A DNA stretch of 64,000 nt from Alphaproteobacteria bacterium (GTDB lineage: Bacteria > Pseudomonadota > Alphaproteobacteria > UBA828). Both the position numbers and the translations under genes were made by a program. Every line of letters starts with the position of its first letter. Position 1 is the first letter of the stretch. Under the pieces are notes generated by a model, which saw nothing but the letters and a program-made list of their open reading frames with translations, did no database searches and had not been told where the DNA came from. The DNA lies in assembly GCA_965220745.1 (NCBI GenBank), contig CBDCQT010000012.1, positions 512,001 through 576,000 on the forward strand, in the 5' to 3' direction. This document shows, one piece after another, positions 15,453 to 50,509 of this stretch.

Positions 15453-15791
15453 GTGTGTTTTGCTCTGACCCGCGCCCGTTGAAGTAGTCCGGAGCTGGTG
15501 TCTCTATTCTCTAGCTTTGATGGTTCGTCTTCGACGCAAGGCGCTATCGGGAGTTCGCAGCCTGAACCACCTGGCGGAGGCGAGGATGTCGGCGGCCGAC
15601 TTGGACCAACGAAACGGTCGCGAATAACAGTGCCCAGACTGTCTAGAGGGGAAAGGCGGCCGTTTGGCCGCCTTTCTCTTGGCCGGCGTCGATCCTCCAG
15701 AGGCGACACGGCGTTCTGATCGACGACGACGGCCAGAGTCGACTCACGCTCGCGGCCCCCGCTATCATCGCTGCCAGCCGGGGAGGGGTGT

Positions 15792-17663
15792 ATGGAGGCA
15801 GTGGTCGATCGCGGCGGGGCGGAAGGCGCAGCCAGCGCGGCCGCCGGGGCCAACGACGCGGGCGGGGCCGATCCCTTCGGCTTCGAGCTCTTCCGCAACG
15901 CCATCTTCGCCATCGCGGACGAGATGGCGCTCACCGTCTGCCGCACCACCTATTCCGGCGTGCTGCGCGACAACATGGATTTCTCCACCGCGCTTACCGA
16001 CGGCGACGGCCGCCTGATCGCGCAGGGGCTCACCCTGCCTGGCCACCTCGGCTCGGTGCCTACCGCCATCCAATCGGTGCTGCGCCACTATGGCGACGAC
16101 ATGCACCCCGGCGACATCTTCGTGATGAACGACCCGTTCGACGGCGGCATGCACCTGCCCGACATCTTCATCTTCAAGCCGATCTTCGACGGGGACGAGC
16201 GCCTCGCCTTCGCCGCCACGGTCTGCCACCACGCCGATGTCGGCGGCCGGGTCGCGGGCTCCAATGCTTCCGATTCCACCGAGATCTACGCGGAAGGCGT
16301 GCGCATCCCACCGCTCCGCCTCTACGACGCGGGCAAGCGCAACGAGACCCTCTTCGCAATCCTCGAGAAGAACGTGCGCCTGCCGGTCAAGCTCTTCGGC
16401 GACCTGCGCGCCCAGCTTGCCGCCTGCCACATCGCGGAGCGCCAGTTCCTCGACCTGGTGCGCCAGCACGGCGCCGAGGCCACGCGCTTCTACCTGCGCG
16501 AGATCATCGACTACGCCGAGCGGCTGACGCGCGCGGCGCTGCGCGAGCTGCCCGACGGCGAGGCGAGCTTCGAGGACTGGATCGACGACGACGGCATCGA
16601 TCGCGGCAAGCCGATCAGGCTGTTCGTGACCTTCCGCAAGGAGGGTGACAGCCTCCACGCCGACTGGGCCGGCTCCTCGCCGCAGGTCAAGGGCGCGATC
16701 AACGGCACGCTGTCGTGGACCAAGGCTGCGACCTACACGGCGGTCCGCTCGGTCCTGCCGCCAGGCATCCCGGACAACGAGGGCGTCTTTCGCGCCATCA
16801 CCGTCACCGCCCCGCCCGGCACCATTACCAACGCAGTGCTGCCGGCGGCCTGCGCGGCGCGCGGGCTCACCGGCTTCCGCATGGTGGACTGCGCCTTCGG
16901 CGCGCTCGCCATGCTGCTGCCGGACAAGGTTTTTGCGGCCTCTGACGGCGGCAACACGGGCATCACCATCGGCGGCTACGACGCCGAGCGTAAGCCCTTC
17001 ATCTACGTCGATTTCACCTGCGGCACCTGGGGCGCCAGGCCCTGGGCCGACGGCCTCGAAGGCAACTCCAACATCCTCGCCAACATGGCGTCGCAGTCGG
17101 TGGAGGTGATCGAGACCGAACAGCCGCTGCAGATCCTCTCCTACGAGTTCGTGCCCGACCGCGCCGGCGCCGGCCGCTACCGGGGCGGCACGCCCTACCG
17201 CCGCGACTATCGCTTCCTGGAGGCCGAGGGCCTGCTCCAGGTGCGGGCGGACCGGCACACCTTCAGGCCCTACGGGCTCTATGGCGGGAGCCCCGGCCAA
17301 CCCTCGCGCAACGTGCTGAACCCGGGGCCGGACGAGCAGCCGCTGCCGAGCAAGCTCACCGAGACCATCCAGCGGGGCGATGTCTTCCGCCACGAGCTCG
17401 CGGGCGCGGGCGGCTGGGGCGACCCGCTGGAGCGCGACCCGCACGCCGTGCTGCGCGACCTCCGCAACGAGCTGATCGGCGATGCCACCGCGCGCAACGA
17501 CTATGGCGTGATCGTCGACCGGGCCGCGTGGCAGGTCGATCACGCCGCGACCGAGGCGCGCCGGGCGGAGCTGCGCGCCAAGCGGGCGTGGACCGAACCA
17601 CCCGCCGTCTCGCGCGGCGAGATGCCCGAGACGGGGAGCGGCGCGCCCGAGAACGGGGCGTGA
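15792..17663 (+). CDS. Hydantoinase B / oxoprolinase family protein
   Basis: MDFSTAL, NDPFDGGMHLPD, HHADVGG and GAGGWGDPLER. Confidence 0.92.
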   Translation: MEAVVDRGGAEGAASAAAGANDAGGADPFGFELFRNAIFAIADEMALTVCRTTYSGVLRDNMDFSTALTDGDGRLIAQGLTLPGHLGSVPTAIQSVLRHYGDDMHPGDIFVMNDPFDGGMHLPDIFIFKPIFDGDERLAFAATVCHHADVGGRVAGSNASDSTEIYAEGVRIPPLRLYDAGKRNETLFAILEKNVRLPVKLFGDLRAQLAACHIAERQFLDLVRQHGAEATRFYLREIIDYAERLTRAALRELPDGEASFEDWIDDDGIDRGKPIRLFVTFRKEGDSLHADWAGSSPQVKGAINGTLSWTKAATYTAVRSVLPPGIPDNEGVFRAITVTAPPGTITNAVLPAACAARGLTGFRMVDCAFGALAMLLPDKVFAASDGGNTGITIGGYDAERKPFIYVDFTCGTWGARPWADGLEGNSNILANMASQSVEVIETEQPLQILSYEFVPDRAGAGRYRGGTPYRRDYRFLEAEGLLQVRADRHTFRPYGLYGGSPGQPSRNVLNPGPDEQPLPSKLTETIQRGDVFRHELAGAGGWGDPLERDPHAVLRDLRNELIGDATARNDYGVIVDRAAWQVDHAATEARRAELRAKRAWTEPPAVSRGEMPETGSGAPENGA

Positions 17664-36614: not shown

Positions 36615-36902
36615 CTACGCGGCTTCGACTCGCTCAACCTGTATCGTCTGCTCGAGGTGGCGGGACTGCGCCAGATCGAAGGCCAACTGCATGCCAAGCC
36701 ATGCCTCCGGCGTCGAGCCGAAGGCCTTCGATAGGCGATAGGCCATCTCGATGGAGACCGACGCCTTTTCGTTCACAAGGTTGGAAAGTGTCTGGCGCCC
36801 GACGCCGAGCCGCCTCGCGCCTTCGGTGACGGTGAGACCCAACGGCTTCAGGCAGTCTTCGCGAACGATGGCACCGGGATGGACGGGGTTCTTCATGGCC
36901 AT
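36615..36902 (-). CDS. higA: HigA-family antitoxin
   Basis: PVHPG..IVRED, HTH, AYRLSKAFGSTPEAWLGMQ; AGGAG SD. Confidence 0.9.
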   Translation of the reverse strand: MAMKNPVHPGAIVREDCLKPLGLTVTEGARRLGVGRQTLSNLVNEKASVSIEMAYRLSKAFGSTPEAWLGMQLAFDLAQSRHLEQTIQVERVEAA

Positions 36903-37038: not shown

Positions 37039-37981
37039 TCATGCGTCTTCCTCAAAATTCGCGTGGGCGAGTGTCGCAGCCCCGAGATCGGCAAGCGCGG
37101 AGCCGGAGGACTTGAAGAGCGTGATTTCCTGTTCGTCGCCGCGGCCGGCGACGGTTCCCCGGCAGAGGCCCGTCAGGTCGCCCGCGATCCGCTCCTCCGT
37201 CAGCGCGCCGGACCGGATCGGCCCGATGATGTCGCCGCTCTCTTTCAAGGCTCCCTCCGTATCGATGTAGACGCGCGCGGCGCACCGCCGCGTCGTCGGC
37301 TTCGCGCATGTGGGGCCTGAAGCTCCCGATCAGGTCGAGATGCTGTCCAGGCCTGAGCCACGCGCCCGCGATCAGTGGGTCGATTGCCAGCGTCGCGCAG
37401 CTGATGATGTCGGCGTCCGCCACCGCAGCCTCGAGATCCGTCGCGGCCGCGGCACGAAACCCCGCGCCGTTCAGCCTTCGCGCCAGCCGTTCGGCATTCT
37501 CCGCATTGATGTTCCAGACCGTGACATCCTCGATCGGACGCACGGCACGAAACGCATCCGCCAGGTTGGCGGCGACCCGCCCGGCGCCGACCACCAGCAG
37601 CCGGCGCGCGTCCGCGGGCGCCAGGTGGCTCGCCGCCAGTGCGGCGGTGGCGGCGGTGCGCCGGTCGGTGAGTTCGCCGCCGTCCAGCGCCGCCAGGTGC
37701 CGCCCGGTCTTCGCATCGAAGAGAAGATAGGACGAGGACACCGAGGGGACTCCGGCGGCCGCGTTGCCCGGATTGACGTTCACGATCTTGACCCCGCCCA
37801 GGCCCGCCGGGTTCCACGCGGGCATCAGGAGCAGCGCCGCGTCCGGCTGCCCGTCAAGCGCGATGGCGTGGTGATGCCGCAAGGGCGCGGCGGCGCCGGC
37901 CCGGAACATCTCCCGCAGCGCCTCGATCAGCGCGCCGAACGGCAGCAGGTCTCGGGTCTCTTCGGCACTGAAGACACGCAT
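37039..37981 (-). pseudogene. Ornithine cyclodeaminase / mu-crystallin family, frameshifted
   Basis: LLMPAW, GVKIVNV, ELTDRRTAA and GAGRVA in one frame; VYIDTEGALKESGD...FKSSG.ALAD in another; shift in a CG run near 37271-37279. Confidence 0.85.
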
Positions 37982-38009
37982 GGTTACCTTCCTCGATTTC
38001 GTAGCGGGG
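37930..38009. repeat. 80-bp direct repeat (ocd 5' end plus leader), copy 1
   Basis: 75/80 identical to 49501-49580 by manual alignment. Confidence 0.9.
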
Positions 38010-38190
38010 CAATGCAGCCTTTCGGGCCGGTGCTCCCCACCGGCCGGCGTGGCCCTGCGGCGGAAGTCACGTCCGGGATTCTATGACACCGTCCTCGTTG
38101 ATGCAGCGCGCGGCGCCGGGACCAGGCGGTCCTAGCCCGCACGCCCGCGCGGGATTCGACGTTGGGCCTTGCAGTGCTACCCAGTAGCCG

Positions 38191-39705
38191 TCACGGCACC
38201 ATCGGACCGGCCCACCGATTGAGGCCAACGTCGTCGTCCGCAACGCGCAAGTGCATTTCGCGCCAATATGGCAGCAGCCTGTCGGCGTCTTCGGCCACCC
38301 GGGCGAGATCCTGCCGGAACCCGGCAGAGAGGTGACGCACTTCCTCCTTGACCCACTCCTCGTCCACCGTGAGCACATTCCCGTTCTCAACGACAACCTC
38401 GCCGCCCACCATCGTGAGGACGACGGACGAGCCGTTCTCGCTGTAAATCAGTTGCCGTCGCAAGTCGTTGAGCGGCGTAAAGGCCGTTGTGTTGAGATCC
38501 AGCAGAATCAGATCGGCCTGGTAGCCTGGCGCCAGCATTCCAAGCTCGTCCTGGAGGCACATGCCGCGGGCTCCGCCACGAGTCAAAGACCACAGAAGCT
38601 CGGATGCCTTGGGCCACTTCAGCCAATCCGGCTCCGAAATTCTGTGCATCACACCGGCGGTTTTCGCTACACCCCAGAGATTGAAGGTGCCATCCACCGC
38701 CATGTCATCTATTCCGAGGCCAATGGGAATTCCTCTGTCCCAAAGGCGCCGATAAGGCATGACACCGCTACCGATCCACAGGTTGCTTACAGGATTGTGA
38801 ACCACCGAGCAGCCGCAGTCCGCGATGGCATCAATGTCGTGTTCATCCGCCCAGATGGCGTGAATGATCATGACATGTTCATCCAGGCATCCGAGATCCC
38901 TCGCATATTGGAAGAACGACTTTCCATGTTTATGGAGTGCCAGAACTCTTTGGTACTTCTGTTCGCCGATATGCATGTCAAACGCCAATCCATGCTTCCG
39001 GCTCAAACGGGAGAGCGCCCTGAAGTAATCGGAAGTTACGCGTTCCGGGGTAGATATTGACACCGCGGCACGCAAGCGGCCGCCTCCAGCACCGTGCCAC
39101 CGCTCAATATAGCGATCGTAAAGCCCTAACAGGTGGTCCGGTGAAATTGCTGCGGCAGACTCGTCCATTCGCTGCCGAATCTCGTTGGGCAGCATGTCTT
39201 TAACGTACGGATACTTCTCGTATTCTGGAACGATGGGGTAGGCGATCGTCGCCGTTGCACGCATTCCGGAATCCAGATAGGCCTGCATGGTACCGTCAAT
39301 TGAAGCCTCCGTCGGAACCGGCGCGTAATGCGGGTCGTCGTGAACGGCCGTGATGCCGTTCTTCAGCATTTCGATGGCGCCCCAAAGTACGCGTACGTAA
39401 TGGAGATGCCGGTCCGGCGGCTCCGTGCTTCCGTACCCGTAAAGCATGAGCACGGAGAGCGGTACGTCCAGATCCACACCGCGCATCAGATTGCTTCCGG
39501 AGTGGAGATGTCCGTTGACAAGGCCCGGCATGGCGAGGAGCCCTTCGGCATCGATCACACGCAGATCGCGCTCGCTCTCGGAAGGACGGATATCGGGTTC
39601 AAGTGCCTCGATCTTCGTCCCGCGGACAAGAATGTCGGCCCGTTCAAACTCGGTGTCGTGGTCATCCATTGTGAGCACGCGCGCATTCTTGATGAGTACC
39701 GCCAT
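38191..39705 (-). CDS. Metal-dependent amidohydrolase (SsnA/AtzA/MTA-deaminase-like)
   Basis: PGLVNGHLH, MHIGE, IHAIW, HNPVSN, GIDD and ADLILL. Confidence 0.9.
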   Translation of the reverse strand: MAVLIKNARVLTMDDHDTEFERADILVRGTKIEALEPDIRPSESERDLRVIDAEGLLAMPGLVNGHLHSGSNLMRGVDLDVPLSVLMLYGYGSTEPPDRHLHYVRVLWGAIEMLKNGITAVHDDPHYAPVPTEASIDGTMQAYLDSGMRATATIAYPIVPEYEKYPYVKDMLPNEIRQRMDESAAAISPDHLLGLYDRYIERWHGAGGGRLRAAVSISTPERVTSDYFRALSRLSRKHGLAFDMHIGEQKYQRVLALHKHGKSFFQYARDLGCLDEHVMIIHAIWADEHDIDAIADCGCSVVHNPVSNLWIGSGVMPYRRLWDRGIPIGLGIDDMAVDGTFNLWGVAKTAGVMHRISEPDWLKWPKASELLWSLTRGGARGMCLQDELGMLAPGYQADLILLDLNTTAFTPLNDLRRQLIYSENGSSVVLTMVGGEVVVENGNVLTVDEEWVKEEVRHLSAGFRQDLARVAEDADRLLPYWREMHLRVADDDVGLNRWAGPMVP

Positions 39706-39737
39706 GGCGTCGTCTCCCCTTCGACCGAGCCCGAATC

Positions 39738-39823
39738 GAGGCTATCACGAATGTTGCCGGGATAATCTGCACATCATGCTGGGCGTCCCGCCGCGAGATA
39801 TCCGGGTCGAGATCGGACGCTGA
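39738..39823 (+). pseudogene. Internally deleted remnant of a DUF1989 gene
   Basis: RGYHECCRDNLHIMLG joined to RDIRVEIGR*, matching EGYHESCQENLHLALD and TDIRVEVGR* of 1190-1801. Confidence 0.6.
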
Positions 39824-39967
39824 GCGACGGGAGACGGTGCGCACCTGATGACCGACGAGGGCGGAATACCCGGCTCGAATAAGGGGCGGCGAATTGCGTA
39901 GGCGCTTCACCCCAACTCACTGTAGAGTCGCACGCTTGAAGCCGTTCGACCGTGCTGGAGCGCAGTC

Positions 39968-41014
39968 ATGGGCAGGACGGGTGCCGAGCCGCAACGATGG
40001 GACGCGACAAGTCCCGCCCGGTCCGGAGATGCCGTCCTTTCGGTCGAGCGTCTGAGGACCTATTTCGACACGCCGGCCGGCGTGGTGAAGGCGGTCGACG
40101 ACGTCTCCTTCAGCTTGAACCGCGGGGACATTCTCGCCATCGTCGGCGAGTCCGGTTCGGGCAAGAGCGTCACCGCCCAGTCCATCATGAAGCTGGTCGC
40201 CATGCCGCCTGGCCGATACGCAAGCGGCCAGGTAGTCCTGGACGGAATCGATCTCCTGTCGCAGAGCGAAAGGGCGCTCGGCGCGATACGCGGCAAGCGC
40301 ATTTCGATGATTTTTCAGAACCCGCGTGCCGCGCTCAACCCTGCCTTTACCGTCTCGACGCTGATGGTAGAGACGCTGCGCCGCCACGATTCTTCGCTCT
40401 CGAAGACGGAGGCGGTCAAGCGCGCCGCGGCGCTCTTGCGCGCGGTCGATTTTCCCGATCCCGAGCGTGTTGCCGCGAGCTATCCCCATCAGATGAGCGG
40501 TGGCATGTGCCAGCGGGTAGGCGTGGCGCTGAGCATGGCCTGCGAGCCGGAAGTGCTCATCGCCGACGAGCCGACAACCGCCCTCGACGTTCTGGTGCAA
40601 GCGACGATTCTTCTTCTCCTGAAGCGCGCGCATGCGGAGCGCGGACTCTCGATCATTCTGATCACCCACGACTTCGGCGTCCTGCGGGCGCTGGCCACCC
40701 GAGTCATCGTCATGTACGCCGGGCAGATACAGGAGCAGGGCCGGGTCGACGACGTTCTCGCCAATCCGCAGCACCCGTACACGAAAGCGCTGATCCAGGC
40801 GGTGCCCGATCCGGATAGCACCGACCAACGGCTTCACCAGATCGAAGGCCAGCCGCCCGATCTGCTGAACCTGCCCGCCGGCTGCAGCTTCGCCGATCGC
40901 TGCGCCTTCGTCATGCCCAAGTGTCGGAGCGAGCGCCCGGAACTCTACGAGGCCGCAGCGGGGACCGACGTTCGCTGTCACTTGTTCGGGCCGGAAGCGA
41001 GCGCGCACCAGTGA
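39968..41014 (+). CDS. Oligopeptide/dipeptide ABC ATP-binding subunit (DppD-like)
   Basis: GESGSGKS, MSGGMCQR, DEPTTALD and HPYT. Confidence 0.93.
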   Translation: MGRTGAEPQRWDATSPARSGDAVLSVERLRTYFDTPAGVVKAVDDVSFSLNRGDILAIVGESGSGKSVTAQSIMKLVAMPPGRYASGQVVLDGIDLLSQSERALGAIRGKRISMIFQNPRAALNPAFTVSTLMVETLRRHDSSLSKTEAVKRAAALLRAVDFPDPERVAASYPHQMSGGMCQRVGVALSMACEPEVLIADEPTTALDVLVQATILLLLKRAHAERGLSIILITHDFGVLRALATRVIVMYAGQIQEQGRVDDVLANPQHPYTKALIQAVPDPDSTDQRLHQIEGQPPDLLNLPAGCSFADRCAFVMPKCRSERPELYEAAAGTDVRCHLFGPEASAHQ

Positions 41015-42120
41015 GCGAACCCCTCATCAAGGTGCGCGGCCTGCGCAAGGCCTTCCCCGTGCGAGAGGGAACAGTCCTGCGCAAGAAGGTCGGCGAGATC
41101 GTGGCTGTGGACGACATCAGCTTCGATGTCTTCGAGGGCGAGACTCTGGGCTGCGTCGGCGGCTCAGGCTCGGGGAAGTCCACTCTAGGGCGGCTGATTC
41201 TCAACCTGATCCGCGCCGATGTGGGAAGCGTCCAATTCGGCGATGCCGATCTGGTCGGCCTCTCCCCGGCTGAGATGCGTCCCTATAGGAAGGATTTGCA
41301 GATCGTCTTCCAGGACCCCCTGCACACGCTCAACCCGCGGCGCACGGTTGCGGAGAACGTCACGCGCTCGATGCTCAACTTCGATATCCCGCGCCAGGAG
41401 GCCAGGGAGCGGGTCCAGTACCTCTTCGACATCGTCGGCCTCAACCCGGCGCATACCAATCGCTATCCGCACGAGTTCAGTGGAGGGCAGTGTCAGCGCA
41501 TCGGCATCGCCCGCGCGCTGGCTCTCGAGCCGCGCTTTCTCTTTCTGGACGAGCCGGTCTCGGCGCTCGATGTCTCGATTCAGGGGCAGATCCTCAATCT
41601 GTTGAAGGAGCTGCAAGAGACCCTTCAGTTGACTTATCTCTTCGTCTCTCACGACCTGAAGCTGGTGAAGAATTTCTCCGACCGCATTCTCGTTCTTTAC
41701 CACGGCCGCGCCGTCGAAATCGGTGGCAGCGACGAGGTCTATCATCAGCCGAAGCATCCCTACACCAGGACGCTCCTCGATGCGGTGCTGGGCCTCAAGA
41801 AGGACGACGCCTGGGAGAGGGTCGCAAGCCAAACCGGCGTGCTTGCCGACGACGAAGACCTTGAGAGCGCCATGCGCGCCTCTGCGGCGGCAAGAACCGG
41901 CTGCATCTATTCCGGCACCTGCACGGAGCGCTTCGAACCGTGTGCCACGCAGATGCCCGAGCTACGGGAAATCGAGGCGAGCCACGCCGTAGCCTGTCAT
42001 CTTTACGAGGGCTCGAAGAAAGACTGGAACGCGTCGGCGGCCGCCGGGGACGCACGACGTGAACGCGAACACGCTCTCCGGCAGGCGCGCGACGAGAATG
42101 CGCGCCAACTCATGACATAA
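41011..42120 (+). CDS. Oligopeptide/dipeptide ABC ATP-binding subunit (DppF-like)
   Basis: GSGSGKST, FSGGQCQR and DEPVSALD; GTG overlaps the upstream TGA. Confidence 0.92.
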   Translation: MSEPLIKVRGLRKAFPVREGTVLRKKVGEIVAVDDISFDVFEGETLGCVGGSGSGKSTLGRLILNLIRADVGSVQFGDADLVGLSPAEMRPYRKDLQIVFQDPLHTLNPRRTVAENVTRSMLNFDIPRQEARERVQYLFDIVGLNPAHTNRYPHEFSGGQCQRIGIARALALEPRFLFLDEPVSALDVSIQGQILNLLKELQETLQLTYLFVSHDLKLVKNFSDRILVLYHGRAVEIGGSDEVYHQPKHPYTRTLLDAVLGLKKDDAWERVASQTGVLADDEDLESAMRASAAARTGCIYSGTCTERFEPCATQMPELREIEASHAVACHLYEGSKKDWNASAAAGDARREREHALRQARDENARQLMT

Positions 42121-42137
42121 AGAGGGAGGACAAGATC

Positions 42138-43781
42138 ATGAAAGGGTGGCTTAAAGGTATGGGCCGGGTGAGCCCGACGTGGCTGTGTCGTCACGCCGTG
42201 GGAATCCTCGCCTTGGTGGCGCTTGCCGCGGGGTCGCTGATCGTGGCGGACAAGCCGGCGCAGGCGCAGGACAAGACCATCGTTCTTGCCGTGGAAGGCG
42301 AGCCCAGTCGTCTCGATCCCCATACACATGTGTTGTGGCTCACCTATCGCGAAACGTTCCACATTTACGAAAGCTTCGTGCAGCAAGACCTGACCATCAA
42401 GGACGTCGATCGTCCGCCGGTCATTCCCGCTCTTGCCACGAGCTGGGACATCTCCGAGGACAAGCTGCAATACACGTTCCATCTGCGCCAGGGGGTCACC
42501 TTCCACGACGGAACGCCGTGGAACGCCGATGTCGCGAAGTTCAATTTCGATCGGGTCCTCGACAAGGACTTCGAGCACTTCTATCCGCTGGCCAACGCCT
42601 TCAACGGCTGGTGGCACGGCGATATCGAGAGCTACGAAGTCGTCGACGAGTACACGTTCCGGGTCAACATGAAGCAGCCGAATTCCGAGTTCATCCGGCG
42701 GCTCTCGCAGGGCGGTTTCGGCTCCTCGGGCATGATCAGCCCCAAGGTCGTGGAGACCCACGGCAACGAGGAGGCGCATCTGCACGGCGTCGGCACCGGC
42801 CCGTTCAAGCTGACGGAGCGTGTCTTCGGCGAAAAGATCGTGATGGAGCGCAACGCCGACTATTGGGACCCCAATCGGATTCCCAGGGTCGACAGGCTCA
42901 TCATTCGTGGCATCCCCGATGTCGCGACCCGCGAGCTTGCGCTTCTCACCGGCGAGGTCGATATCATTGCCACGCCGTCTCCGGACTCGACGGACTTTCT
43001 CGCGTCGCAGGGCATGGTCGTCGACATGGCGCCGATCACGACGATCTACAACCTGTGGGTCAACACGCGGCTGAAGCCGCTCGATGATCCTCGTGTCCGG
43101 CGGGCGCTCTACATGGCGATCGACCGTGAGGGTCTGTGCAAATACTTGAGACGTGGCCAATGCTCACCCGCCTACAGCATCTTGAACTATGGCGGACCGG
43201 GCCACGATCCCGACTACCAGCCCTTCCCCTATGACCCGGCCAGGGCCAAGGAGCTGCTGGCGGAGGCCGGTTATCCGGACGGCTTCGACGTGCGCGTCGA
43301 TTGGACGCCGGGCGGCGCCGGCGACGTCAACACCGTGGCCGATGCCGAATGGATTCAGCGTGACTGGGCCCGTATCGGCGTCAATCTGAGCATCGAGCTC
43401 TTCGAGATCAGCACCTACATGGACACGATGTCCCAGGGCATGCGTGAGGGCACCGGCTTCATGCAGCTCTCCTGGGGTGAGAGCGCGTTCCATTGGCTCG
43501 ACGCCGTCATCTCGCCGGCAGCCTTGCCGCCCAACGGCTTCAATGCCGGGTATTACGACAACCCGAGGATCGGTGAGCTGCTTTCCATGGCGCGGGCTGC
43601 GCTGACCGAAGAAGAGATGGTGGCCCACCTCAGGGAGATCCAACGGATCGTCATCGAGGAAGACACGGCCTTTATTCCCACCCACAGCCCGTGGGGAGTC
43701 TACGCCATGCGGCCCAATCTCAAGGGCTTCGTGCTTGCACCGCAGCACTGGCACGACATGGCGATTGTCGACAAAGAATAA
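42138..43781 (+). CDS. ABC substrate-binding protein, family 5
   Basis: Signal peptide, LATSWDIS, LRQGVTFHDG, GTGPF and AKELLAEAGYPDG. Confidence 0.93.
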   Translation: MKGWLKGMGRVSPTWLCRHAVGILALVALAAGSLIVADKPAQAQDKTIVLAVEGEPSRLDPHTHVLWLTYRETFHIYESFVQQDLTIKDVDRPPVIPALATSWDISEDKLQYTFHLRQGVTFHDGTPWNADVAKFNFDRVLDKDFEHFYPLANAFNGWWHGDIESYEVVDEYTFRVNMKQPNSEFIRRLSQGGFGSSGMISPKVVETHGNEEAHLHGVGTGPFKLTERVFGEKIVMERNADYWDPNRIPRVDRLIIRGIPDVATRELALLTGEVDIIATPSPDSTDFLASQGMVVDMAPITTIYNLWVNTRLKPLDDPRVRRALYMAIDREGLCKYLRRGQCSPAYSILNYGGPGHDPDYQPFPYDPARAKELLAEAGYPDGFDVRVDWTPGGAGDVNTVADAEWIQRDWARIGVNLSIELFEISTYMDTMSQGMREGTGFMQLSWGESAFHWLDAVISPAALPPNGFNAGYYDNPRIGELLSMARAALTEEEMVAHLREIQRIVIEEDTAFIPTHSPWGVYAMRPNLKGFVLAPQHWHDMAIVDKE

Positions 43782-43790
43782 ACAATAAGG

Positions 43791-43830
43791 TGGGGCGGTC
43801 TCGCCGGCGATTTCCTGCCGGCGGGGCCGC
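43791..43830 (+). promoter_or_regulatory. Intercistronic hairpin after the SBP gene
   Basis: GCGGTCTCGCCGGC...GCCGGCGGGGCCGC stem between SBP and permease; position fits an mRNA-stabilising or attenuating stem. Confidence 0.45.
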
Positions 43831-43851
43831 TACTGCCCCTCCGAGCCGACC

Positions 43852-44796
43852 ATGCTCAGATTCATTATCTGGCGCTTGATTCACGTGGTGCCGGTTCTAC
43901 TCGGCGTTTCTTTCGTCGTTTTCAGCATTCTCTATCTCATTCCAGGCGACATCGCGACCACGCTGCTCTCGATGTTCTACACCGAGGAGCGCGCGGCCAT
44001 GCTGCGCGAGCAACTCGGCCTGGACAGGCCGATGTTCGTCCAATACGGCCGCTGGCTCTGGGCCGCGTTGCACGGCGATCTCGGCCAGTCGCTCATGATG
44101 CGGATGCCGGTGATGACCGTGCTGCTGGACAAGACCGGAAACTCGCTCATCCTGACCGGTGCAAGTTTGCTCATCGTCATTCCGGTGAGCTTCCTGATGG
44201 GCACCGCGTCTGCGGCCCGTTTCCGCAAGCCCTTCGACCGCTTTACCGTCTTCTTCTCGCTGCTGCTCGCGAGCATGCCGGTCTTCTGGCTTGGGATTGC
44301 GCTGCTCTACCTGTTCGGCGTGCGGATACCGCTCTTTCCCATGTCGGGCATGTACAACATGGCCAATCCAGGCGGCATCCTTGACCTGCTTCATCACCTA
44401 TTCCTGCCGGCGGTGACTACGGCGGCCACCTCGGTCGCCATCGTGACGCGGGTCACCCGAGGCGCCATGCTCGATACGTTGAGCCAGCCCTATATCCTGG
44501 CTGCACGGTCGCGCGGATTGCCGGGGTCACGGGTGATCTATCGCCACGGCGTGCGCAATATTTTGCCGACCTTCTCCAACATGATCGGCCTGCAGATCGG
44601 TTATCTATTCGGCAGCGCCATCTTTTCGGAAATCATCTTCAACTGGCCCGGAATCGGCCTGCAGCTTTACCAGTCGATCCTGCATCGCGATCTGACAATG
44701 GTGCAGGGCTGCGTGCTGGCCGTCGCCATCATATTCGTCCTGGGCAATATGTTGGCCGACATCATCGTCTACGCCCTCGACACCACCCGGAAGTAG
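43852..44796 (+). CDS. ABC permease (DppB-like)
   Basis: LGLDRP, GDLGQS, EAA-like YILAARSRGL and FNWPGIG. Confidence 0.93.
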   Translation: MLRFIIWRLIHVVPVLLGVSFVVFSILYLIPGDIATTLLSMFYTEERAAMLREQLGLDRPMFVQYGRWLWAALHGDLGQSLMMRMPVMTVLLDKTGNSLILTGASLLIVIPVSFLMGTASAARFRKPFDRFTVFFSLLLASMPVFWLGIALLYLFGVRIPLFPMSGMYNMANPGGILDLLHHLFLPAVTTAATSVAIVTRVTRGAMLDTLSQPYILAARSRGLPGSRVIYRHGVRNILPTFSNMIGLQIGYLFGSAIFSEIIFNWPGIGLQLYQSILHRDLTMVQGCVLAVAIIFVLGNMLADIIVYALDTTRK

Positions 44797-44811
44797 CGAG
44801 GGCGGCGTCGC

Positions 44812-45741
44812 ATGGCCACGGGCAGGATCAGGAGGAGCAGGGCATCGAAGCGCTCCCGACGCAGCGTGGAGACGGAGCGCGCGCGGTCGACGCTCTATTT
44901 CATCTGGCGCGGTATTCGCAACGATCCCTACGGGATGGCCGGCGCCCTGATCATCCTGGTTCTCGTGATTTGCGCGCTGTTCGCGCCCTATATCGCGCCC
45001 TACGACCCGCAGTATGCCGACCCGAGGCTGCGGCTGCGCGGTCCGGGAACCGAGGGTCACATCCTGGGCTTGGACCAGCAGGGGCGGGACATCCTCTCGC
45101 GCCTAATCTACGGCACCCGTTACTCGCTCATCGCCGGAGTCACGCCAGTCGTGCTCGGCGGCCTCATTTCGATCCCCCTCGGTACCATTGCCGCGTACTA
45201 CGAGCGTGTCGGCTATTTCATCATGCGCTCCATGGATGTGCTGTTCGCATTTCCCATGGTGCTGCTGGCGATCACGCTCTCCTTCTTCATGGGGCCGGGG
45301 CTCGGCAATCTGATCATCGCCCTCGTCGTGGTCCTGATCCCCTACAACACGCGCGTCGTCTACGTGCAGGCGCTGGCGCAGAAGGAGCAGGGCTATATCG
45401 AAGCCGCCCGCGCCGATGCGACCAGCGATTTCAAGATTCTGTTCGTCGAGATGCTGCCCCACGTCGTATCCGCATCGGTCGTCTATTCCATGACCATCGT
45501 GGGGACGATCGTGGTGACGGCGGCAGGGCTGAGCTTCCTCGGCCTCGGGGTGCAGCCGCCCACGCCCGAGTGGGGCATCATGACCAGTGACGGCCGCACC
45601 GTGCTGCACATCGCCCCCCACGTCTCGACCCTGCCGGGAGTGGCGATCTTTCTCATGGTCACGGGCTTCAACCTGCTCGGCGACAGCCTGCGCGACGCGC
45701 TCGATCCGAAGACAAGGCTGGTGCGGGCCGGGGCACGATAG
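44812..45741 (+). CDS. ABC permease (DppC-like)
   Basis: GRDILSRLIYG, YIEAARA, LSFLGLGVQPPTPEWG and LRDALDP. Confidence 0.93.
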   Translation: MATGRIRRSRASKRSRRSVETERARSTLYFIWRGIRNDPYGMAGALIILVLVICALFAPYIAPYDPQYADPRLRLRGPGTEGHILGLDQQGRDILSRLIYGTRYSLIAGVTPVVLGGLISIPLGTIAAYYERVGYFIMRSMDVLFAFPMVLLAITLSFFMGPGLGNLIIALVVVLIPYNTRVVYVQALAQKEQGYIEAARADATSDFKILFVEMLPHVVSASVVYSMTIVGTIVVTAAGLSFLGLGVQPPTPEWGIMTSDGRTVLHIAPHVSTLPGVAIFLMVTGFNLLGDSLRDALDPKTRLVRAGAR

Positions 45742-45788
45742 GATGACGTGTCGCGGCGGATCGCCATGAACCACGAGGACACGCTGCC

Positions 45789-47027
45789 ATGACCAAGACA
45801 CGATTGATGCCCAAGAATCACTGGGACTGGAGCATGCCCGTGCCGTTCTCGCAGGGGTGGAAGATCGACGACGTGATCTTCGTCGGCGGTCAGGTCTCCG
45901 CCGATGCCCAGGGCCGACCCGTCGGGGCCGGCGACATCGCGGTGCAGACGCGAAACACGTTCGAGTTCATCAAGCGAGTCCTGGAGGAGGCCGGCGGCGA
46001 TCTCTCCGACATCGTGAAGCTCAACACCTACTACCAGCACGACGGGGAGGGCGCCGACATCACCCGCTTCTGGGAGGAGATGACCGAGGTCAGGAAGGAA
46101 TACCTGGCCGATCCCGGCCCGGTGGGCACGGCCGTCCGTGTTCGGGGCTTCGCCTACGAGGGCCTGCTCATCGAGATCGAGGCCATCGCCGTCGTCGGCC
46201 GCAAGAAGCAACGGCTCATGCCCGCCAATCACTGGGACTGGAGCATTCCGGTCCCATTCTCCCAGGGCTGGAAGGTGGACGATCTGATCTTCGTTGGAGG
46301 ACAGATATCATCTGACGACAGAGGGCGCACCATCGCACCCGGCGACATCGGCCAGCAGGTGAGGAACGTCTTCGGCTCGATCCGGAGCGTGCTCAGGGAG
46401 GGCGGCGCGGAGCTCTCCGACCTCATAAAGTTCAATACCTACTACCAGTTCGAGGGCGAAGGCGACGCGCTCCGGCAATACTGGGAAGACATGACCAAGG
46501 TCCGCATGGAGTATCTCAGCGATCCGGGCCCTGCCGGTACCGCGGTCCGGGTCAACGGCTTCGCCTTTGAGGATCTGCTCATCGAGATCGAAGGCATCGC
46601 CTATGTGGGCGCAGACAAACAGCGCCTGATGCCCGCCAACCATTGGGACTGGAGCATACCGGTCCCGCTCTCGCAGGGCTGGAAGGTCGGCGACTACATC
46701 TTCGTCGGCGGGCAGATATCAGGCGACAGCAAGGGCAGCGCCATCGGCGTCGGCGACATCGCCACGCAGACCCGCAACACCTTCGAGAACATCCGCGCGG
46801 TGCTGAAGGAGGCCGGGGCGGACCTGGAGCACATCGTGCGCCTCAACACTTACTACGACCAGGTTGGCGAGGGTCAGGCGTTGCAGGACTACTGGGAGGC
46901 CATGACCAAAGTTCGGATGGACTATCTCGCGAACCCGGGGCCGGTCGGCACCGCCGTTCGCGTCAACGGTCTCGGCTACCAGGATCTGCTTATCGAAATC
47001 GAGGCCATCGCCTACGTCGGGTCGTGA
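45789..47027 (+). CDS. Protein of three tandem Rid (YjgF/YER057c/UK114) domains
   Basis: Three 137-aa units with an exact 411-bp period, each with SQGWK..IFVGGQ, IV/IKLNTYY-like and LIEIEA/GIA. Confidence 0.9.
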   Translation: MTKTRLMPKNHWDWSMPVPFSQGWKIDDVIFVGGQVSADAQGRPVGAGDIAVQTRNTFEFIKRVLEEAGGDLSDIVKLNTYYQHDGEGADITRFWEEMTEVRKEYLADPGPVGTAVRVRGFAYEGLLIEIEAIAVVGRKKQRLMPANHWDWSIPVPFSQGWKVDDLIFVGGQISSDDRGRTIAPGDIGQQVRNVFGSIRSVLREGGAELSDLIKFNTYYQFEGEGDALRQYWEDMTKVRMEYLSDPGPAGTAVRVNGFAFEDLLIEIEGIAYVGADKQRLMPANHWDWSIPVPLSQGWKVGDYIFVGGQISGDSKGSAIGVGDIATQTRNTFENIRAVLKEAGADLEHIVRLNTYYDQVGEGQALQDYWEAMTKVRMDYLANPGPVGTAVRVNGLGYQDLLIEIEAIAYVGS

Positions 47028-47063
47028 TTGGATAACCCGTCTTGGCGCCAAGGAGGAACTGAC

Positions 47064-47969
47064 ATGATCAAGAACCCCGTTCCCTGGCCGGACGGCGCCA
47101 AGTGCGCCGCTGCCATCACATTCGACATCGATACCGACAGCATCCTGCATCTCGAGCACAGGGAGAGGGCGGATACGATGCTGTCGTCGCTGTCGTGGCT
47201 GAAATACGACGAGGTGGCGATCCCGCGCATTCTCGACATGTACCGGGACTGCGGCATCAAGCAGACCTTCTTCTATCCGGCGTGGTGCATGGAGCGCTAT
47301 CCCCATCTCGTCGAGATGATCCTCAAGGATGGCCACGAGATTGCAGCCCACGGCTACATTCACGAAGACCCGAACAAGCTGCCGCGGGAGGAAGAGCACT
47401 ACTGGTTGAGGCGCCAGATCGACGTCATCGAAAAGATGACCGGCCAGCGCCCGCGCGGCTGGCGCGGCCCGCTTTACAACGCGTCCAAGTACTCGGTCGA
47501 CCTCTTGATCGAGGAGGGGCTCATCTACGACGCCACGCTGATGGGCGACGACGTGCCCTACGTCCTGAAGACAGCGCAGGGGAGCGTCATCGAGCTTCCC
47601 TCCCACTGGGCGATGGACGATTGGCCGCACTACACCCATTCGTTCGACTTCAACTACATGATGACGATCAAGTCGCCGGACGAGGCGATGAACGTCTTCA
47701 TGTCCGAGTTCGAGGCCATGTACGACTTCGGTGGCCTCTGGGTGACCGTGTGGCACCCCTTCGTCTCCGGGCGCCTCGCCCGCTGCCGCCGCGTCCAGCA
47801 GATGATCGAGTACATGCAGAGCAAGGGTGGCGTCTGGTTCACAACCATGGAGGAGATCGCCAAACACGTCCAAGCGTGCATAGACGACGGCAGCTGGACG
47901 CCGCGCGTGGACAACCTGCCCTATTACGACGGCTTGGTGCCGGAACTGGAGAGGCTGGCTGCCGAGTAA
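47064..47969 (+). CDS. Polysaccharide deacetylase (CE4, PuuE/HpPgdA-like)
   Basis: TFDIDTD, HEIAAHGYIHE, GWRGP, DDWPH and WHPFVSGR; no signal peptide; GGAGG SD. Confidence 0.88.
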   Translation: MIKNPVPWPDGAKCAAAITFDIDTDSILHLEHRERADTMLSSLSWLKYDEVAIPRILDMYRDCGIKQTFFYPAWCMERYPHLVEMILKDGHEIAAHGYIHEDPNKLPREEEHYWLRRQIDVIEKMTGQRPRGWRGPLYNASKYSVDLLIEEGLIYDATLMGDDVPYVLKTAQGSVIELPSHWAMDDWPHYTHSFDFNYMMTIKSPDEAMNVFMSEFEAMYDFGGLWVTVWHPFVSGRLARCRRVQQMIEYMQSKGGVWFTTMEEIAKHVQACIDDGSWTPRVDNLPYYDGLVPELERLAAE

Positions 47970-48018
47970 GGCGAGACGAACTGTCCCGTCACAGACGGCT
48001 ACCGGGACGGAGGGAGAA

Positions 48019-49464
48019 ATGGCTGGCACGACGCTCATCAGGAACGCCGACTGGGTCGTGGGCTACGACCCCGACAGGGACGGTCACGTCTACATGCGCG
48101 GCGCCGACGTGGCCTTCGCGAACGACACGATCATCCACGTCGGCAGAGACTATGGTGGCGAGGCCGAGCATGTCATCGACGGCAAGGACGTGATGGTCCT
48201 TCCCGGAATGCTCGATCTTCATCTGCATGGCTACATGGAAATGCACGGCAAGGGATTCTTCGAAGACCTTGCCACCAAGCATATGTGGATGACGCAGCTG
48301 CTCGAGTACACGTGGATCCTGCAGGACGACAAGGAATCGTCATTTGCCGCGACCCAGGCGTCGGCCTGCGATCTGCTGAAGAGCGGCTGCACCACGATGG
48401 CGGAACTCTACTGTTCCGGCCTGCCGTTCGACGGATGGGTGGACATGCTCGCAGGCACGGGTATTCGGACCTATGCGTGCCCCATGGTGCAGTCCGCTCA
48501 CTGGTACACGTCCAACGGCAAGGATCACCTCTACGAGTGGTACGAAGAGAAGGGCTTCGAGAACCTCGAGCGATCCCTTGAGATAATCGACGACGCGATT
48601 GCGCATCCCAGCGGCCGCTTGCACGGGATGGTTGGCCCGGCCCAGGCCGACACCTGTACGGAAGAGATGTTTCGGCGGTGCAAGGAGGCCGCTGACTCCA
48701 GAGGGATTCTGTTGCAGACCCATGCTGCACAGTCCGTCATGGAACATCGCGAGATGGTCCGGCGCCACGGCAAGACGCCGATCGAATGGCTGGACGATAT
48801 CGGCGTGCTCGGCCCGAACACGCTGCTAGGGCACGCCATCGACATCGACCAGCATCCCTGGGTCAACCACCACGAGCATCGCGACCTGGAACGCCTCGCC
48901 CGGTCCGGATCGTCTGTCGTGCATTGCCCGCGCGCCTTCGCCCAGTGGGGAGACATGATGCGGAGCCTCGGCGGTTACCGCGCCGCCGGCGTCAACATGG
49001 CGCTCGGCACCGATTGCTACCCGCACGATCTGGTCGAGGAGATGCGAATCGCCGGTCTCATGTCGAAGGTGGCGAGCGGCCATGTCGACCTGCTGCCGAC
49101 CGACGCGGTGTTCGAGATCGCAACGTTGGGCGCTGCCAGGGCGCTCGGCCGGGACGACCTGGGGCGCTTGGCGTCAGGCGCCAAGGCGGATCTCGCCCTG
49201 GTCGATCTGCGTCATCCCTCGATTCGCCCGGTGCGCGATCCGCTGAAGTGCCTAATCTATTCCGGCACAGCCGCGGCGGTCCGCGACGTATTCGTGAACG
49301 GAGAGCAAGTGGTGAAGGACCGCACCGTACTCACGGTCGATCAGGACGATGCGCTGGACCGTCTGCAGGAGGGCCAAAAGCGGGCGCTCGACCGAATTCC
49401 GGAACTGGACTGGGCGAAGCGCAGCGCCGACGACATGTCTCCCTTCTGCCTGCCGATCGACTGA
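48019..49464 (+). CDS. Metal-dependent amidohydrolase (deaminase/chlorohydrolase-like)
   Basis: PGMLDLHLH, THAAQS, GHAI, HCP, GTDC and KADLALVD. Confidence 0.9.
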   Translation: MAGTTLIRNADWVVGYDPDRDGHVYMRGADVAFANDTIIHVGRDYGGEAEHVIDGKDVMVLPGMLDLHLHGYMEMHGKGFFEDLATKHMWMTQLLEYTWILQDDKESSFAATQASACDLLKSGCTTMAELYCSGLPFDGWVDMLAGTGIRTYACPMVQSAHWYTSNGKDHLYEWYEEKGFENLERSLEIIDDAIAHPSGRLHGMVGPAQADTCTEEMFRRCKEAADSRGILLQTHAAQSVMEHREMVRRHGKTPIEWLDDIGVLGPNTLLGHAIDIDQHPWVNHHEHRDLERLARSGSSVVHCPRAFAQWGDMMRSLGGYRAAGVNMALGTDCYPHDLVEEMRIAGLMSKVASGHVDLLPTDAVFEIATLGAARALGRDDLGRLASGAKADLALVDLRHPSIRPVRDPLKCLIYSGTAAAVRDVFVNGEQVVKDRTVLTVDQDDALDRLQEGQKRALDRIPELDWAKRSADDMSPFCLPID

Positions 49465-49500
49465 TCCGCGACGACCTTTCATGTCCGGCTCTGTTGTTCG

Positions 49501-49580
49501 GCGCGCCGAACGGCAGCAGGTCTCGTGTCTATTCGGCACTGAAGACGCGCATGATTACCTTCCTCGATTTCGTAGCAGGG
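49501..49580. repeat. 80-bp direct repeat (ocd 5' end), copy 2, with a nonsense codon
   Basis: Matches 37930-38009; minus strand reads MRVFSAE*. Confidence 0.9.
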
Positions 49581-49760
49581 GAGGCGCAACCCTGTTGTTA
49601 GGCGCGTAAGTTAGACCTCGAAAAATCCAGTTTTCTCAATGGATTACAATGTCGATCGGCGTCAAATCCACGATCCGATCAACAACGTTTCAAATGCGGC
49701 AGCCCTGTCCGGGCTGACGGAGCCCGAGTAGATAGACGGGGTAGCCGTTCCCTCTGCCGG

Positions 49761-50237
49761 CTAACCCGATGGCGTCGAGAGGGAGGCGTTTTGGGCGATT
49801 CCGATTTCGAGTGTGACCACGATCGCGTAAGCCGCCAAGCAGAGCACTGCAGCGAGCAACGAAAAAATCATCACCGGCATACTTCGTGCGAGCCATTTGT
49901 TTCTGGGGACATTAATAAAGCCTTTTGACTGTGTTTTGTTTTCAATATCTTTGTTGAACTGTGTACGATAAGTGTTCGCCGTTTTATTTGCATGACTTAC
50001 GGCCAAATAGGTGGCGGCAGCACCGCTCACTATTCCTATTCCCAATGACGCCCACGTCGCCGACAAAAAGTATTTTGCTGGCCCTTCGGTTGGGGCGGCT
50101 GGCCCCAATCCAGCCAAGATTGCTAGTGCGCCGGCTGCCAAGGTCAGAATTTGTCGAAGCCAAAGAGCCTGCTGCTCATCGCGCTTCTCATCCAATTCAA
50201 CAATTCTCTTAAGGCGATTCTGGATGAATTCTTCCAT
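49761..50237 (-). CDS. Hypothetical membrane protein (low GC)
   Basis: 158-aa ORF with about three hydrophobic segments; AT-rich codons. Confidence 0.65.
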   Translation of the reverse strand: MEEFIQNRLKRIVELDEKRDEQQALWLRQILTLAAGALAILAGLGPAAPTEGPAKYFLSATWASLGIGIVSGAAATYLAVSHANKTANTYRTQFNKDIENKTQSKGFINVPRNKWLARSMPVMIFSLLAAVLCLAAYAIVVTLEIGIAQNASLSTPSG

Positions 50238-50434
50238 ATGGTCCCCACGTCGGTGGTGTGGCAGCAGTGATGATAAGAGCCGCGTCGCCCTGCGTAACCT
50301 TAGCGCTTGGGAGGCTGATCACATTGGGCACGACCATCCCGGTGCCGTCCCCGTACGGAAGGGGGATTGTTGTGGGATCCACCTCAGTTCTTCAAGATAA
50401 AATCATTTACACACAACGGTTTATAACAATTGGG

Positions 50435-50509
50435 TGGTGACCCCTACGGGAATTGAACCCGTGTCTCCACCTTGAAAGAGTGGTGTCCTAACCTCTAGAC
50501 GAAGGGGTC
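50435..50509 (-). tRNA. tRNA-Glu (TTC)
   Basis: GACCCCTTCGTCTAGAGGTTAGGACACCACTCTTTCAAGGTGGAGACACGGGTTCAATTCCCGTAGGGGTCACCA folds as a cloverleaf; anticodon TTC; encoded CCA. Confidence 0.97.

Follow-up and report, generated by a model that had tools for sequence, protein, structure and literature searches.

The subject of this report is a cluster of nine genes in a 64,000-nucleotide stretch of an alphaproteobacterial genome (GTDB lineage UBA828; assembly GCA_965220745.1, contig CBDCQT010000012.1, positions 512,001 to 576,000), henceforth called the window. In this cluster, the genes of a Dpp/Opp-type ABC importer, including its solute-binding protein (SBP), are followed by genes for a protein of three tandem Rid domains (3xRid), a CE4/NodB-fold metallohydrolase (CE4) and an amidohydrolase (AH2), while a second amidohydrolase gene (AH1) diverges from them. 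The genes were identified by open reading frame (ORF) listing together with Pfam and NCBIfam profile scans of the window, and all nine are intact at the coordinates of an initial annotation, which had described a co-oriented, tightly spaced series with a divergent amidohydrolase; this description is accurate, the eight plus-strand genes being spaced by -4 to 70 nt (Table 1). Where several relatives have to be told apart, loci are cited by L numbers and genomes by G numbers, G000 being the host genome.

Table 1. Features of the gene cluster and its flanks, in window coordinates.
Feature	Coordinates	Strand	Basis
Acquired island	38121..49516		blastn against G008 and G011, 93.6-96.7% over 38121/38132-49509/49516
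AH1, canonical cog0402-type amidohydrolase, divergent	38191..39705	-	Amidohydro_1
DUF1989 remnant in the AH1-dppD spacer, 84 nt	39737..39820	+	tblastn with the intact DUF1989 of the window (1190-1801), E 0.005 and 0.42
dppD/oppD-type ABC ATPase	39968..41014	+	ABC_tran and oligo_HPY
dppF/oppF-type ABC ATPase; GTG start at 41011 overlaps the dppD stop	41011..42120	+	Pfam/NCBIfam; sequence at 41002-41020
Periplasmic family-5 SBP, signal-peptide-like N-terminus	42138..43781	+	SBP_bac_5, 5e-85
dppB-type permease	43852..44796	+	Pfam/NCBIfam
dppC-type permease	44812..45741	+	Pfam/NCBIfam
3xRid, three tandem Rid domains, 412 aa	45789..47027	+	Three Ribonuc_L-PSP stretches
Cytoplasmic CE4/NodB-fold metallohydrolase; likely start ATG at 47064	47028..47969	+	Pfam Polysacc_deac_1
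AH2, atypical cog0402 amidohydrolase	48019..49464	+	NF004801, 359.9 against 416 bits
Native ocd/mu-crystallin gene, frameshifted	37039..37981	-	Pfam OCD_Mu_crystall, 1.3e-46, profile positions 19-244 only
Left copy of 83-nt direct repeat (ocd 5' end and upstream sequence)	37927..38009		93% identical to 49498-49580
Right repeat copy: dead ocd 5' fragment and upstream sequence	49498..49683		84% to the G006 ocd 5' region
tRNA-Glu(UUC)	50435..50509	-	Island adjoins tRNA-Glu in three genomes

The gene order is conserved well beyond this genome. L002 (96% nucleotide identity), L004 (87%) and L007 and L013 (68-76% over aligned segments) all have the full order dppD-dppF-SBP-dppB-dppC-3xRid-CE4-AH2; in L005 the eight-gene set is rearranged, and the short contigs L001, L003 and L008 are consistent with the full order over the part that they cover. 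A pattern scan with one genome per species yielded 204 loci with a 3xRid relative, the best 80 of which were examined and labelled by record titles as proteobacterial (31) or as belonging to other phyla (49; Planctomycetota and Acidobacteriota), with homologues accepted at a minimum of 40% identity for CE4 and 60% for AH2. Among these best 80 loci, 3xRid has a CE4 gene within 3 kb in 24 of the 31 proteobacterial cases, and at 8.5 kb in L005, and AH2 is present in 11 of the 31; in the other phyla, CE4 is found near 3xRid in none of the 49, 33 of which offer at least 2 kb on both sides. The pair of 3xRid and CE4, together with AH2, is thus the conserved core. Six of the genes show dN/dS ratios of 0.06-0.12 against the 87%-identical copy in L004, and of 0.14-0.22 against L007 and L013. 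With conserved synteny, low dN/dS, the GC content of the island and a bracketing repeat, the cluster is more than a chance arrangement, and the initial annotation is supported to the extent that this is a conserved, co-inherited uptake and hydrolysis cluster whose enzymes have no characterised orthologue. The synteny that the initial annotation proposed to look for in other genomes was thereby recovered for the eight genes (L002, L004, L007 and L013), but AH1 is linked to them only in this genus.

The first five plus-strand genes make up a complete Dpp/Opp (PepT-type) ABC importer in one operon, comprising two oligo_HPY ATPases, two BPD_transp_1 permeases and a family-5 binding protein. The dipeptide permease equivalogs do not recognize it: the DppA model scores 171.6 against a cut-off of 1005, dppD reaches no equivalog cut-off, and the remaining Dpp models are also under theirs. 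The closest solved relatives of the binding protein are HbpA, YliB/GsiB and DppA (1e-55 to 1e-44).

The three domains of 3xRid are 70-74% identical at the DNA level, with a period of 411 nt. An AF2 model of the single chain (pLDDT 92.9, pTM 0.93) predicts that the protein folds as a single-chain pseudo-trimer; the full-length structures closest to this model are those of pseudo-trimeric chorismatases (TM 0.53-0.57 on the query), and its single domains resemble RidA, RutC and AmnE in structure. The resemblance to the single-chain chorismatases 4bps and 5a3k resides in the fold of the full-length model, the identity being only 13-14%. In RidA, a conserved arginine (Arg105 in E. coli) is regarded as needed for imine hydrolysis. 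This position is Gly in all three domains of 3xRid (PVG, PAG and PVG, the PVG of domain 1 aligning with the PAR of PH0854, YabJ and others), so the protein lacks the conserved arginine in the PAR motif by which the RidA subfamily is recognized; an invariant Arg lies four residues further on, and each domain carries a conserved N-terminal extension containing HWDW. The whole-protein score on TIGR00004 (165) passes the cut-off of 106 only because the scores of three domains add up, and the RutC model gives 111.7 against 169.1. Among the candidates scored, the arginine-less 3xRid family comprises 993 proteins at E<=0.001. Three tandem Rid domains were named 3x-RidA in 2015, without a function and with the expectation of a covalently linked trimer (Niehaus et al. 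2015, PMC4433059); the window protein has the three-domain tandem fusion described there. A complex prediction of 3xRid with CE4 returned a score of 0.00 and no answer, which is evidence neither way. As a separate observation, the 3xRid frame of a Pseudomonadales metagenome-assembled genome (L020:9467-11236) runs to 589 aa with an N-terminal extension of about 180 aa (start as called) and abuts a TonB-dependent receptor gene.

The CE4 protein scores 62 bits on Pfam Polysacc_deac_1 (cut-off 23.1) and has all five NodB motifs: TFDID, HGYxHE, PRGWRxP, MDDWPH and WHPF are shared without change by all 13 aligned homologues, and the metal triad (Asp-His-His) is present, as are the catalytic Asp and His that mark CE4/NodB enzymes. 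It is about 50% identical over 268 residues to M. smegmatis 3rxz (E 6e-60), to which the PDB title assigns no function, and it matches HpPgdA (3qbu) at 4e-27 and PuuE (3cl6) at 1.6e-19, the PuuE matches as a whole ranging from 1e-19 to 1e-24; the NodB fold and the cytoplasmic location are common to it and these small-molecule hydrolases. In its active site it is not PuuE-like: the PuuE allantoinase model (TIGR03212) gives 84 bits against a cut-off of 424.6, the closest match is 3rxz, and the second metal His is kept (HGYIHE) whereas PuuE, with a metal-independent site, has HGYRW with a Trp there. Over the whole host genome, there are 12 CE4-like matches.

Both amidohydrolases belong to the cog0402 type, and the metal ligands of that type (HxH, beta5 His, beta6 His and beta8 Asp) are present in AH1, in AH2 and in seven AH2 orthologues. 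AH1 reads HIGE, thereby keeping the catalytic Glu and the full HxH/HxxE/His/Asp set, whereas in AH2 and in all seven aligned orthologues the Glu of HxxE is replaced by Gln (THAAQ); as a result, the deamination by SsnA/AtzA-type enzymes put forward in the initial annotation is not a safe reading for AH2. Both proteins match the TRZ/ATZ, 8-oxoguanine-deaminase and SsnA models at 1e-35 to 1e-64, and AH2 matches a chlorohydrolase-family model at 2.3e-107. On the SsnA model (TIGR03314), AH2 obtains 127.7 and AH1 148.4 against a cut-off of 455.5; the best NCBIfam score of AH1 is 216.2 against 609, and the nearest that any protein of the cluster comes to an NCBIfam cut-off is AH2 on NF004801, "chlorohydrolase family protein" (Table 1). 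AH2 is single-copy, with no paralogue at E<=1e-30 in the host genome, and an ESM Atlas search with it returned only clusters named "amidohydrolase family protein".

The two amidohydrolases also differ in their distribution. AH1 is not in L004, L005, L007 or L013, and only its first ~120 nt are left in L002; orthologues of 98% identity stand beside the operon only in the same-genus genomes G008 and G011, and G012 has a 92% copy elsewhere. AH1 is a genus-specific addition to the cluster and, in the reading proposed below, a later one. The idea that AH1 substitutes for a hydantoinase was rejected, the protein being of cog0402 type and not a dihydropyrimidinase. In G012 (L134, C6:976000-994000), six tandem AH2 paralogues, 64-70% identical to the AH2 of the window, occupy ~5057-14100; they come straight after a dppF-SBP-dppB-dppC set and directly before a distant CE4 gene, about 1 kb beyond which a D-serine-dehydratase-like gene lies on the opposite strand. 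This local amplification of the amidohydrolase is striking, and the combination of a Dpp transporter with six AH2 paralogues ties AH2 directly to the imported compound.

The fuller relatives give hints of the kind of chemistry to which this core may belong. In L007 and L013, a PuuR-like HTH-cupin regulator precedes the eight genes and a D-hydantoinase/dihydropyrimidinase follows them (TIGR02033, 565 against 393), while an arginase-family gene and an M20 allantoate-amidohydrolase/carbamoylase gene (458.5 against 452) lie upstream on the other strand; L013 also has a xanthine/uracil permease 5 kb downstream. None of these four genes (arginase-family, M20 carbamoylase, D-hydantoinase and PuuR-like regulator) is found in the window island. 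Additional genes at L005 encode a single-domain Rid protein, an arginase-family protein, a creatinase-type M24 protein, an L-aspartate-oxidase-like flavoprotein and a DDAH-like protein. An AH2 homologue of 46% identity, borne by a Methylobacterium plasmid, is accompanied by a carbamoylase, a dihydroorotase-like enzyme, an Asp/Glu-racemase-family gene, a binding protein of family-5 size and an M24 gene. The common thread of the relatives is an amide or amidine hydrolase beside the arginine-less Rid type, in the wider company of ureide- and guanidine-handling enzymes; relatives with hydantoinase, carbamoylase, arginase-family and M24 genes fit an N-rich cyclic amide or amidine as the substrate.

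At more distant 3xRid loci, the company changes. An HpaB-type monooxygenase stands at L011, L041, L047, L048, L061 and L067, with a flavin reductase in L011, L041 and L061 and an AsnC regulator in L041 and L061; a CE4 gene is present in L041, L047, L048 and L067, and none in L011 and L061. A soluble di-iron monooxygenase and a NitT/TauT-type ABC system occur in L012, L014 and L021, and a TAXI-TRAP transporter in L006. The host genome has a second, divergent 3xRid/CE4 pair of the di-iron monooxygenase type (53% and 72% identity; L125, G000:C12:377093-388000), after which a NitT/TauT-type ABC system, a toluene-monooxygenase-like di-iron oxygenase (Phenol_Hydrox, TmoB), an SDR gene and a hydantoinase-B/oxoprolinase gene were noticed. 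On two Mesorhizobium plasmids (L093 and L094; NZ_CP083953.1 and NZ_CP083955.1), 3xRid (41-45%) directly precedes an M24 Xaa-Pro-peptidase-family gene, in the neighbourhood of an amino-acid ABC system, a succinylglutamate-desuccinylase/aspartoacylase-family gene and a Thr/Ser dehydratase. This set resembles the eut/doe genes for ectoine and hydroxyectoine; ectoine degradation was rejected as the pathway, the window having none of those eut/doe-like enzymes. Single-domain Rid homologues (~52%) on Paracoccus (L135) and Arthrobacter (L136) plasmids adjoin M20, adenine-deaminase-like and cyclase-family hydrolases, without a CE4 gene; in L136, a flavin reductase and a 498-aa gene that carries the annotation siderophore-biosynthesis-related lie ahead of the Rid homologue.

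The setting of the nine genes bears the marks of acquisition. The island, of about 11.4 kb, sits between the frameshifted native ocd gene and tRNA-Glu; its GC content is 0.60-0.64 across 38-50 kb against 0.67-0.71 in both flanks, and two copies of the 83-nt direct repeat bracket it at a spacing of 11571 nt, the ocd fragment in the right copy having an in-frame stop at codon 8. The whole island is also present in G008 and G011, with tRNA-Glu and recJ directly after it in both and an rve_3 fragment at its edge in G008, while in the same-genus genomes G006 and G013 the site is empty, with ocd followed within ~130-330 bp by tRNA-Glu and recJ. Of the features that mark a tRNA-adjacent genomic island, the neighbouring tRNA gene, the deviant GC content, the direct repeats on both sides and the empty site in relatives are all found; no integrase or recombinase gene appears among the ORFs scanned in 38121-50434. 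AH2 has a patchy distribution, with matches at E<=1e-60 in 7 of the 20 genomes of the same genus that were searched. The homology shared with L002 and L004 ends at or within 7 nt past the AH2 stop (49462 and 49471), and these copies have mobile surroundings of their own, namely Toprim/DUF7146 and IS66 in L002 and four transposase families in L004. The region is read as a horizontally acquired, integrase-less genomic island, and it is an even call whether it carries a self-contained hydrolytic catabolic module; the island also illustrates the trimming and movement of a catabolic module between close relatives at a tRNA site.

Some minor observations concern the same site. Between the dead ocd fragment and tRNA-Glu lies an AT-richer stretch of about 750 bp (49684-50434) with a 158-aa membrane-like ORF (49761-50237, minus strand), and this stretch is not at this site in G006, G008, G011 or G013. 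In G011, the ocd flank (to window position 38141) is on contig C1, whereas the island with tRNA-Glu and recJ is on contig C3; this genome is 7.9 Mb long and 9% contaminated, and the bin may hold two strains.

The initial annotation noted two broken genes alongside the cluster, an ocd/mu-crystallin pseudogene and a DUF1989 remnant. The ocd/mu-crystallin gene is indeed a pseudogene, frameshifted by the loss of 2 nt (CG, near 37271-37279) relative to four same-genus genomes, three of which have an intact frame of 314 aa; its C-terminus is encoded in another frame, and one contig from an RNA library carries the CG missing from the window. As an imine reductase of the pathway it is no longer a candidate, because it is a broken gene of the native chromosome that is also present in relatives without the island at this site; it is chromosomal flank and outside the cluster. 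The DUF1989 remnant is short and only weakly similar (Table 1), and what makes it credible is solely the intact DUF1989 gene that L004 has at the same place, upstream of dppD. An intact DUF1989 gene also lies at window 1190-1801, after a BPD_transp_2 permease; its protein is 84% identical to the DUF1989 upstream of dppD in L004, and its family is the source family of the remnant. The island has no regulator, as had been remarked before; a HigA-like HTH_3 antitoxin-type gene (~36615-36900, minus strand) adjoins ocd 1.3 kb left of the cluster and is outside the island, and its long upstream ORF extension looks spurious. A promoter and terminator consensus scan found fewer sites than in shuffled sequence.

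From this material, a mobile hydrolytic route for a small N-rich cyclic amide or amidine, that is, a hydantoin-, dihydropyrimidine- or cyclic-guanidine-like compound, can be proposed with roughly balanced confidence. Gene content, conservation and motif states were observed, and we infer each of the reaction steps. The family-5 binding protein and DppBCDF would import the compound. AH2 would act first, hydrolysing a ring or amidino C-N bond in place of a classical exocyclic deamination; the metal-dependent CE4 would then take off an N-acyl, N-formyl or N-carbamoyl group, or open a cyclic amide, and thus expose an unstable enamine or imine, which the arginine-less 3xRid pseudo-trimer would turn into a carbonyl compound and ammonia. 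In the fuller relatives, the D-hydantoinase, the M20 carbamoylase and the arginase-family hydrolase could finish the route under the PuuR-like regulator; here, with none of them in the island, the same functions would have to come from paralogues at other places in the genome. The host genome has seven D-hydantoinase matches over the TIGR02033 cut-off, one of them 72% identical to that of L007 and located next to another Dpp system, and three M20 carbamoylase matches over their cut-off. The pay-off of such a route would be nitrogen and some carbon. It was also observed that the host genome has an unusually large set of cyclic-amide hydrolases, and that one of its hydantoinases (C10:406486-407874) adjoins another Dpp system, a Rieske oxygenase and an isochorismatase.

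Several known systems can be compared with the cluster. With hyu-type hydantoin and dihydropyrimidine clusters, L007 and L013 share a D-hydantoinase over its cut-off and an M20 carbamoylase-family gene by the same operon, and the neighbours of the plasmid-borne AH2 homologue include a carbamoylase, a dihydroorotase-like enzyme and a racemase-family gene; the window island, however, has neither hydantoinase nor carbamoylase by its transporter and is not itself a hydantoin-utilization cluster. A core of AH2, CE4 and 3xRid is not known to be part of hyu clusters. The Rut pyrimidine pathway employs the RutA/F oxygenase, the amidohydrolase RutB and the Rid protein RutC. Its logic is similar, in that an amide hydrolase frees an unstable amino-acrylate-type product that a Rid protein handles; the matches of 3xRid in sequence and in structure include RutC, and distant 3xRid loci also have a two-component flavin monooxygenase. 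The window, by contrast, has no oxygenase, and its hydrolase is a CE4 enzyme and not an isochorismatase. E. coli and Clostridia have a reductive uric-acid (2,8-dioxopurine) pathway that comprises XdhD, YgfK, SsnA, HyuA, YgeW/UacY, YgeY and YgeX and has an end step via an enamine (10.1101/2025.05.19.654654, 10.1101/2025.04.24.650524). In it, SsnA is reported to be a ring-cleaving hydrolase that works with HyuA and YgeY (bioRxiv 10.1101/2025.05.19.654654), which sets a precedent for a cog0402 enzyme of this kind. The superfamilies in common are the ring-cleaving cog0402 enzyme (SsnA), the hydantoinase (HyuA) and the M20 amidase (YgeY). The island nevertheless lacks XdhD, YgfK, YgeW, YqeA and YgeX, the redox and PLP enzymes of the pathway being absent, and stays far from the SsnA model, its CE4 and 3xRid are without a counterpart in the pathway, and the window host is an aerobic-type marine alphaproteobacterium. 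The cluster is a mobile catabolic operon of familiar superfamilies and not a new kind of system. A search of open-access PMC and bioRxiv found no characterised equivalent and no paper on a cluster of Rid, CE4 and amidohydrolase genes or on its substrate.

Several points weigh against the proposed hydrolytic route. No protein of the cluster reaches any curated NCBIfam equivalog cut-off. The substrate is not singled out by any evidence in the cluster, and family-5 binding proteins mostly bind peptides. The Gln that replaces Glu in AH2 could point to another reaction or even to a role in binding, and with Rid domains devoid of the RidA arginine, the last step may be something else. The distant neighbours of 3xRid vary widely, from monooxygenases to the ectoine-like set, so context is only loosely transferred from them. 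The island is without the regulator, hydantoinase and carbamoylase of the fuller clusters, and the route may be incomplete here, the island being a trimmed version of the cluster. In addition, AH2 occurs on other contigs in the empty-site genomes G006 (97%) and G013 (91%), and their empty site may come from strain mixtures or from another insertion place.

Three other explanations compete with the proposed route. The chemistry of the initial annotation, in which AH1 and AH2 deaminate or dechlorinate an aromatic purine, pterin or s-triazine, CE4 opens the ring in the manner of PuuE and ocd reduces an imine, draws on the matches of both amidohydrolases to TRZ/ATZ, 8-oxoguanine-deaminase, SsnA and, for AH2, chlorohydrolase models, on the intact catalytic set of AH1, on the CE4 match to PuuE and on the xanthine/uracil permease downstream in L013. 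Nevertheless, we consider it unlikely, because the amidohydrolase that is conserved, AH2, carries Gln instead of the catalytic Glu in eight of eight sequences, AH1 is not conserved beyond the genus, ocd is a broken native flank, and CE4 keeps its metal triad and falls far below the PuuE cut-off. Moreover, genes for xanthine dehydrogenase, uricase and the cyanuric-acid, biuret and allophanate steps were not seen in the island by ORF and profile scans, and nothing in the evidence singles out a purine, pterin or triazine. A salvage of modified peptides or N-acyl amino acids appears rather improbable; here, the Dpp system would import an unusual di- or tripeptide (e.g., N-acylated, dehydro- or with a D-residue), CE4 would de-acylate it, AH2 would be peptidase-like and 3xRid would dispose of a dehydro-amino-acid enamine. 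Such a role agrees with a transporter of the peptide/opine/nickel (Dpp/Opp) type whose closest solved binding proteins include DppA, GsiB and HbpA, with the M24 Xaa-Pro-peptidase-family genes near L005, L013, L067 and the Mesorhizobium and Methylobacterium plasmid relatives, and with enamine-generating PLP dehydratase genes near relatives. It is at odds with AH2 lying in the cog0402 branch and not among dipeptidases or aminoacylases, its best models being of chlorohydrolase and deaminase types, with hydantoinase and carbamoylase being the tightly linked partners in L007 and L013, and with a binding protein far below all peptide-binding equivalog cut-offs.

It is also conceivable, though quite improbable in our estimation, that the island is a trimmed remnant without a working pathway, merely carried along among pseudogenes. 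It lacks the regulator, the hydantoinase and the carbamoylase that L007 and L013 have, the DUF1989 remnant, the ocd fragment and the frameshifted ocd gene line its edges, and homology with L002 and L004 stops abruptly after AH2. A decaying element would, however, have to be reconciled with nine intact genes under the low dN/dS already given relative to L004, with the presence of the same trimmed form at 94-97% identity in G008 and G011, with paralogous hydantoinases and carbamoylases in the genome and, as a weak argument, with the cover of the operon by contigs from RNA libraries.

If the proposed hydrolytic route is true, three widespread families to which no function is assigned, namely the arginine-less 3xRid, its CE4 partner and the NF004801-type amidohydrolase, would gain a shared physiological context, and a testable route would be at hand by which sponge and coral symbionts mine an N-rich host or microbial metabolite. 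A bolder version can be offered only tentatively, since we lean against it: 3xRid and CE4 might form a dedicated pair that de-acylates and then de-aminates, fed by a ring-opening AH2, in an oxygen-independent pathway that none of the papers searched describes. As its substrate, one would expect a cyclic guanidine, a cyclic amidine or a ureide that sponge and coral holobionts contain in abundance (e.g., of glycocyamidine, 2-aminoimidazole or substituted-hydantoin type). If that were true, AH2 would have a reaction type new to its superfamily, and 3xRid would be a new catalytic solution in the Rid fold. Creatinine, N-methylhydantoin and 2-aminoimidazole are no more than ideas for the substrate.

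Public sequence data give some indication of habitat and expression. For the window stretch, 39-51% of sampled words were found in runs from several studies that carry the labels sponge, coral and marine metagenome; no habitat was named from RNA runs with a small share. Parts of the operon are covered by contigs that are 90-99% alike and come from four RNA libraries of three studies; these contigs span the junctions of dppC with 3xRid (45308-45853) and of CE4 with AH2 (47883-48141 and 47840-48078); contigs of this kind do not prove transcription, so the cover is weak evidence for expression, and uncovered parts (e.g., most of AH1 and 49142-50075) are no evidence of silence. The high contig depth over the ATPase genes stems from conserved ABC motifs of other organisms, and the listed contig "joints" with sides of 20-37 nt are read as cross-matches. 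Elsewhere in the window, GC content is also lower at 12001-16000 (0.60-0.625, with ~0.70 in the surroundings), and this second stretch may likewise have been acquired.

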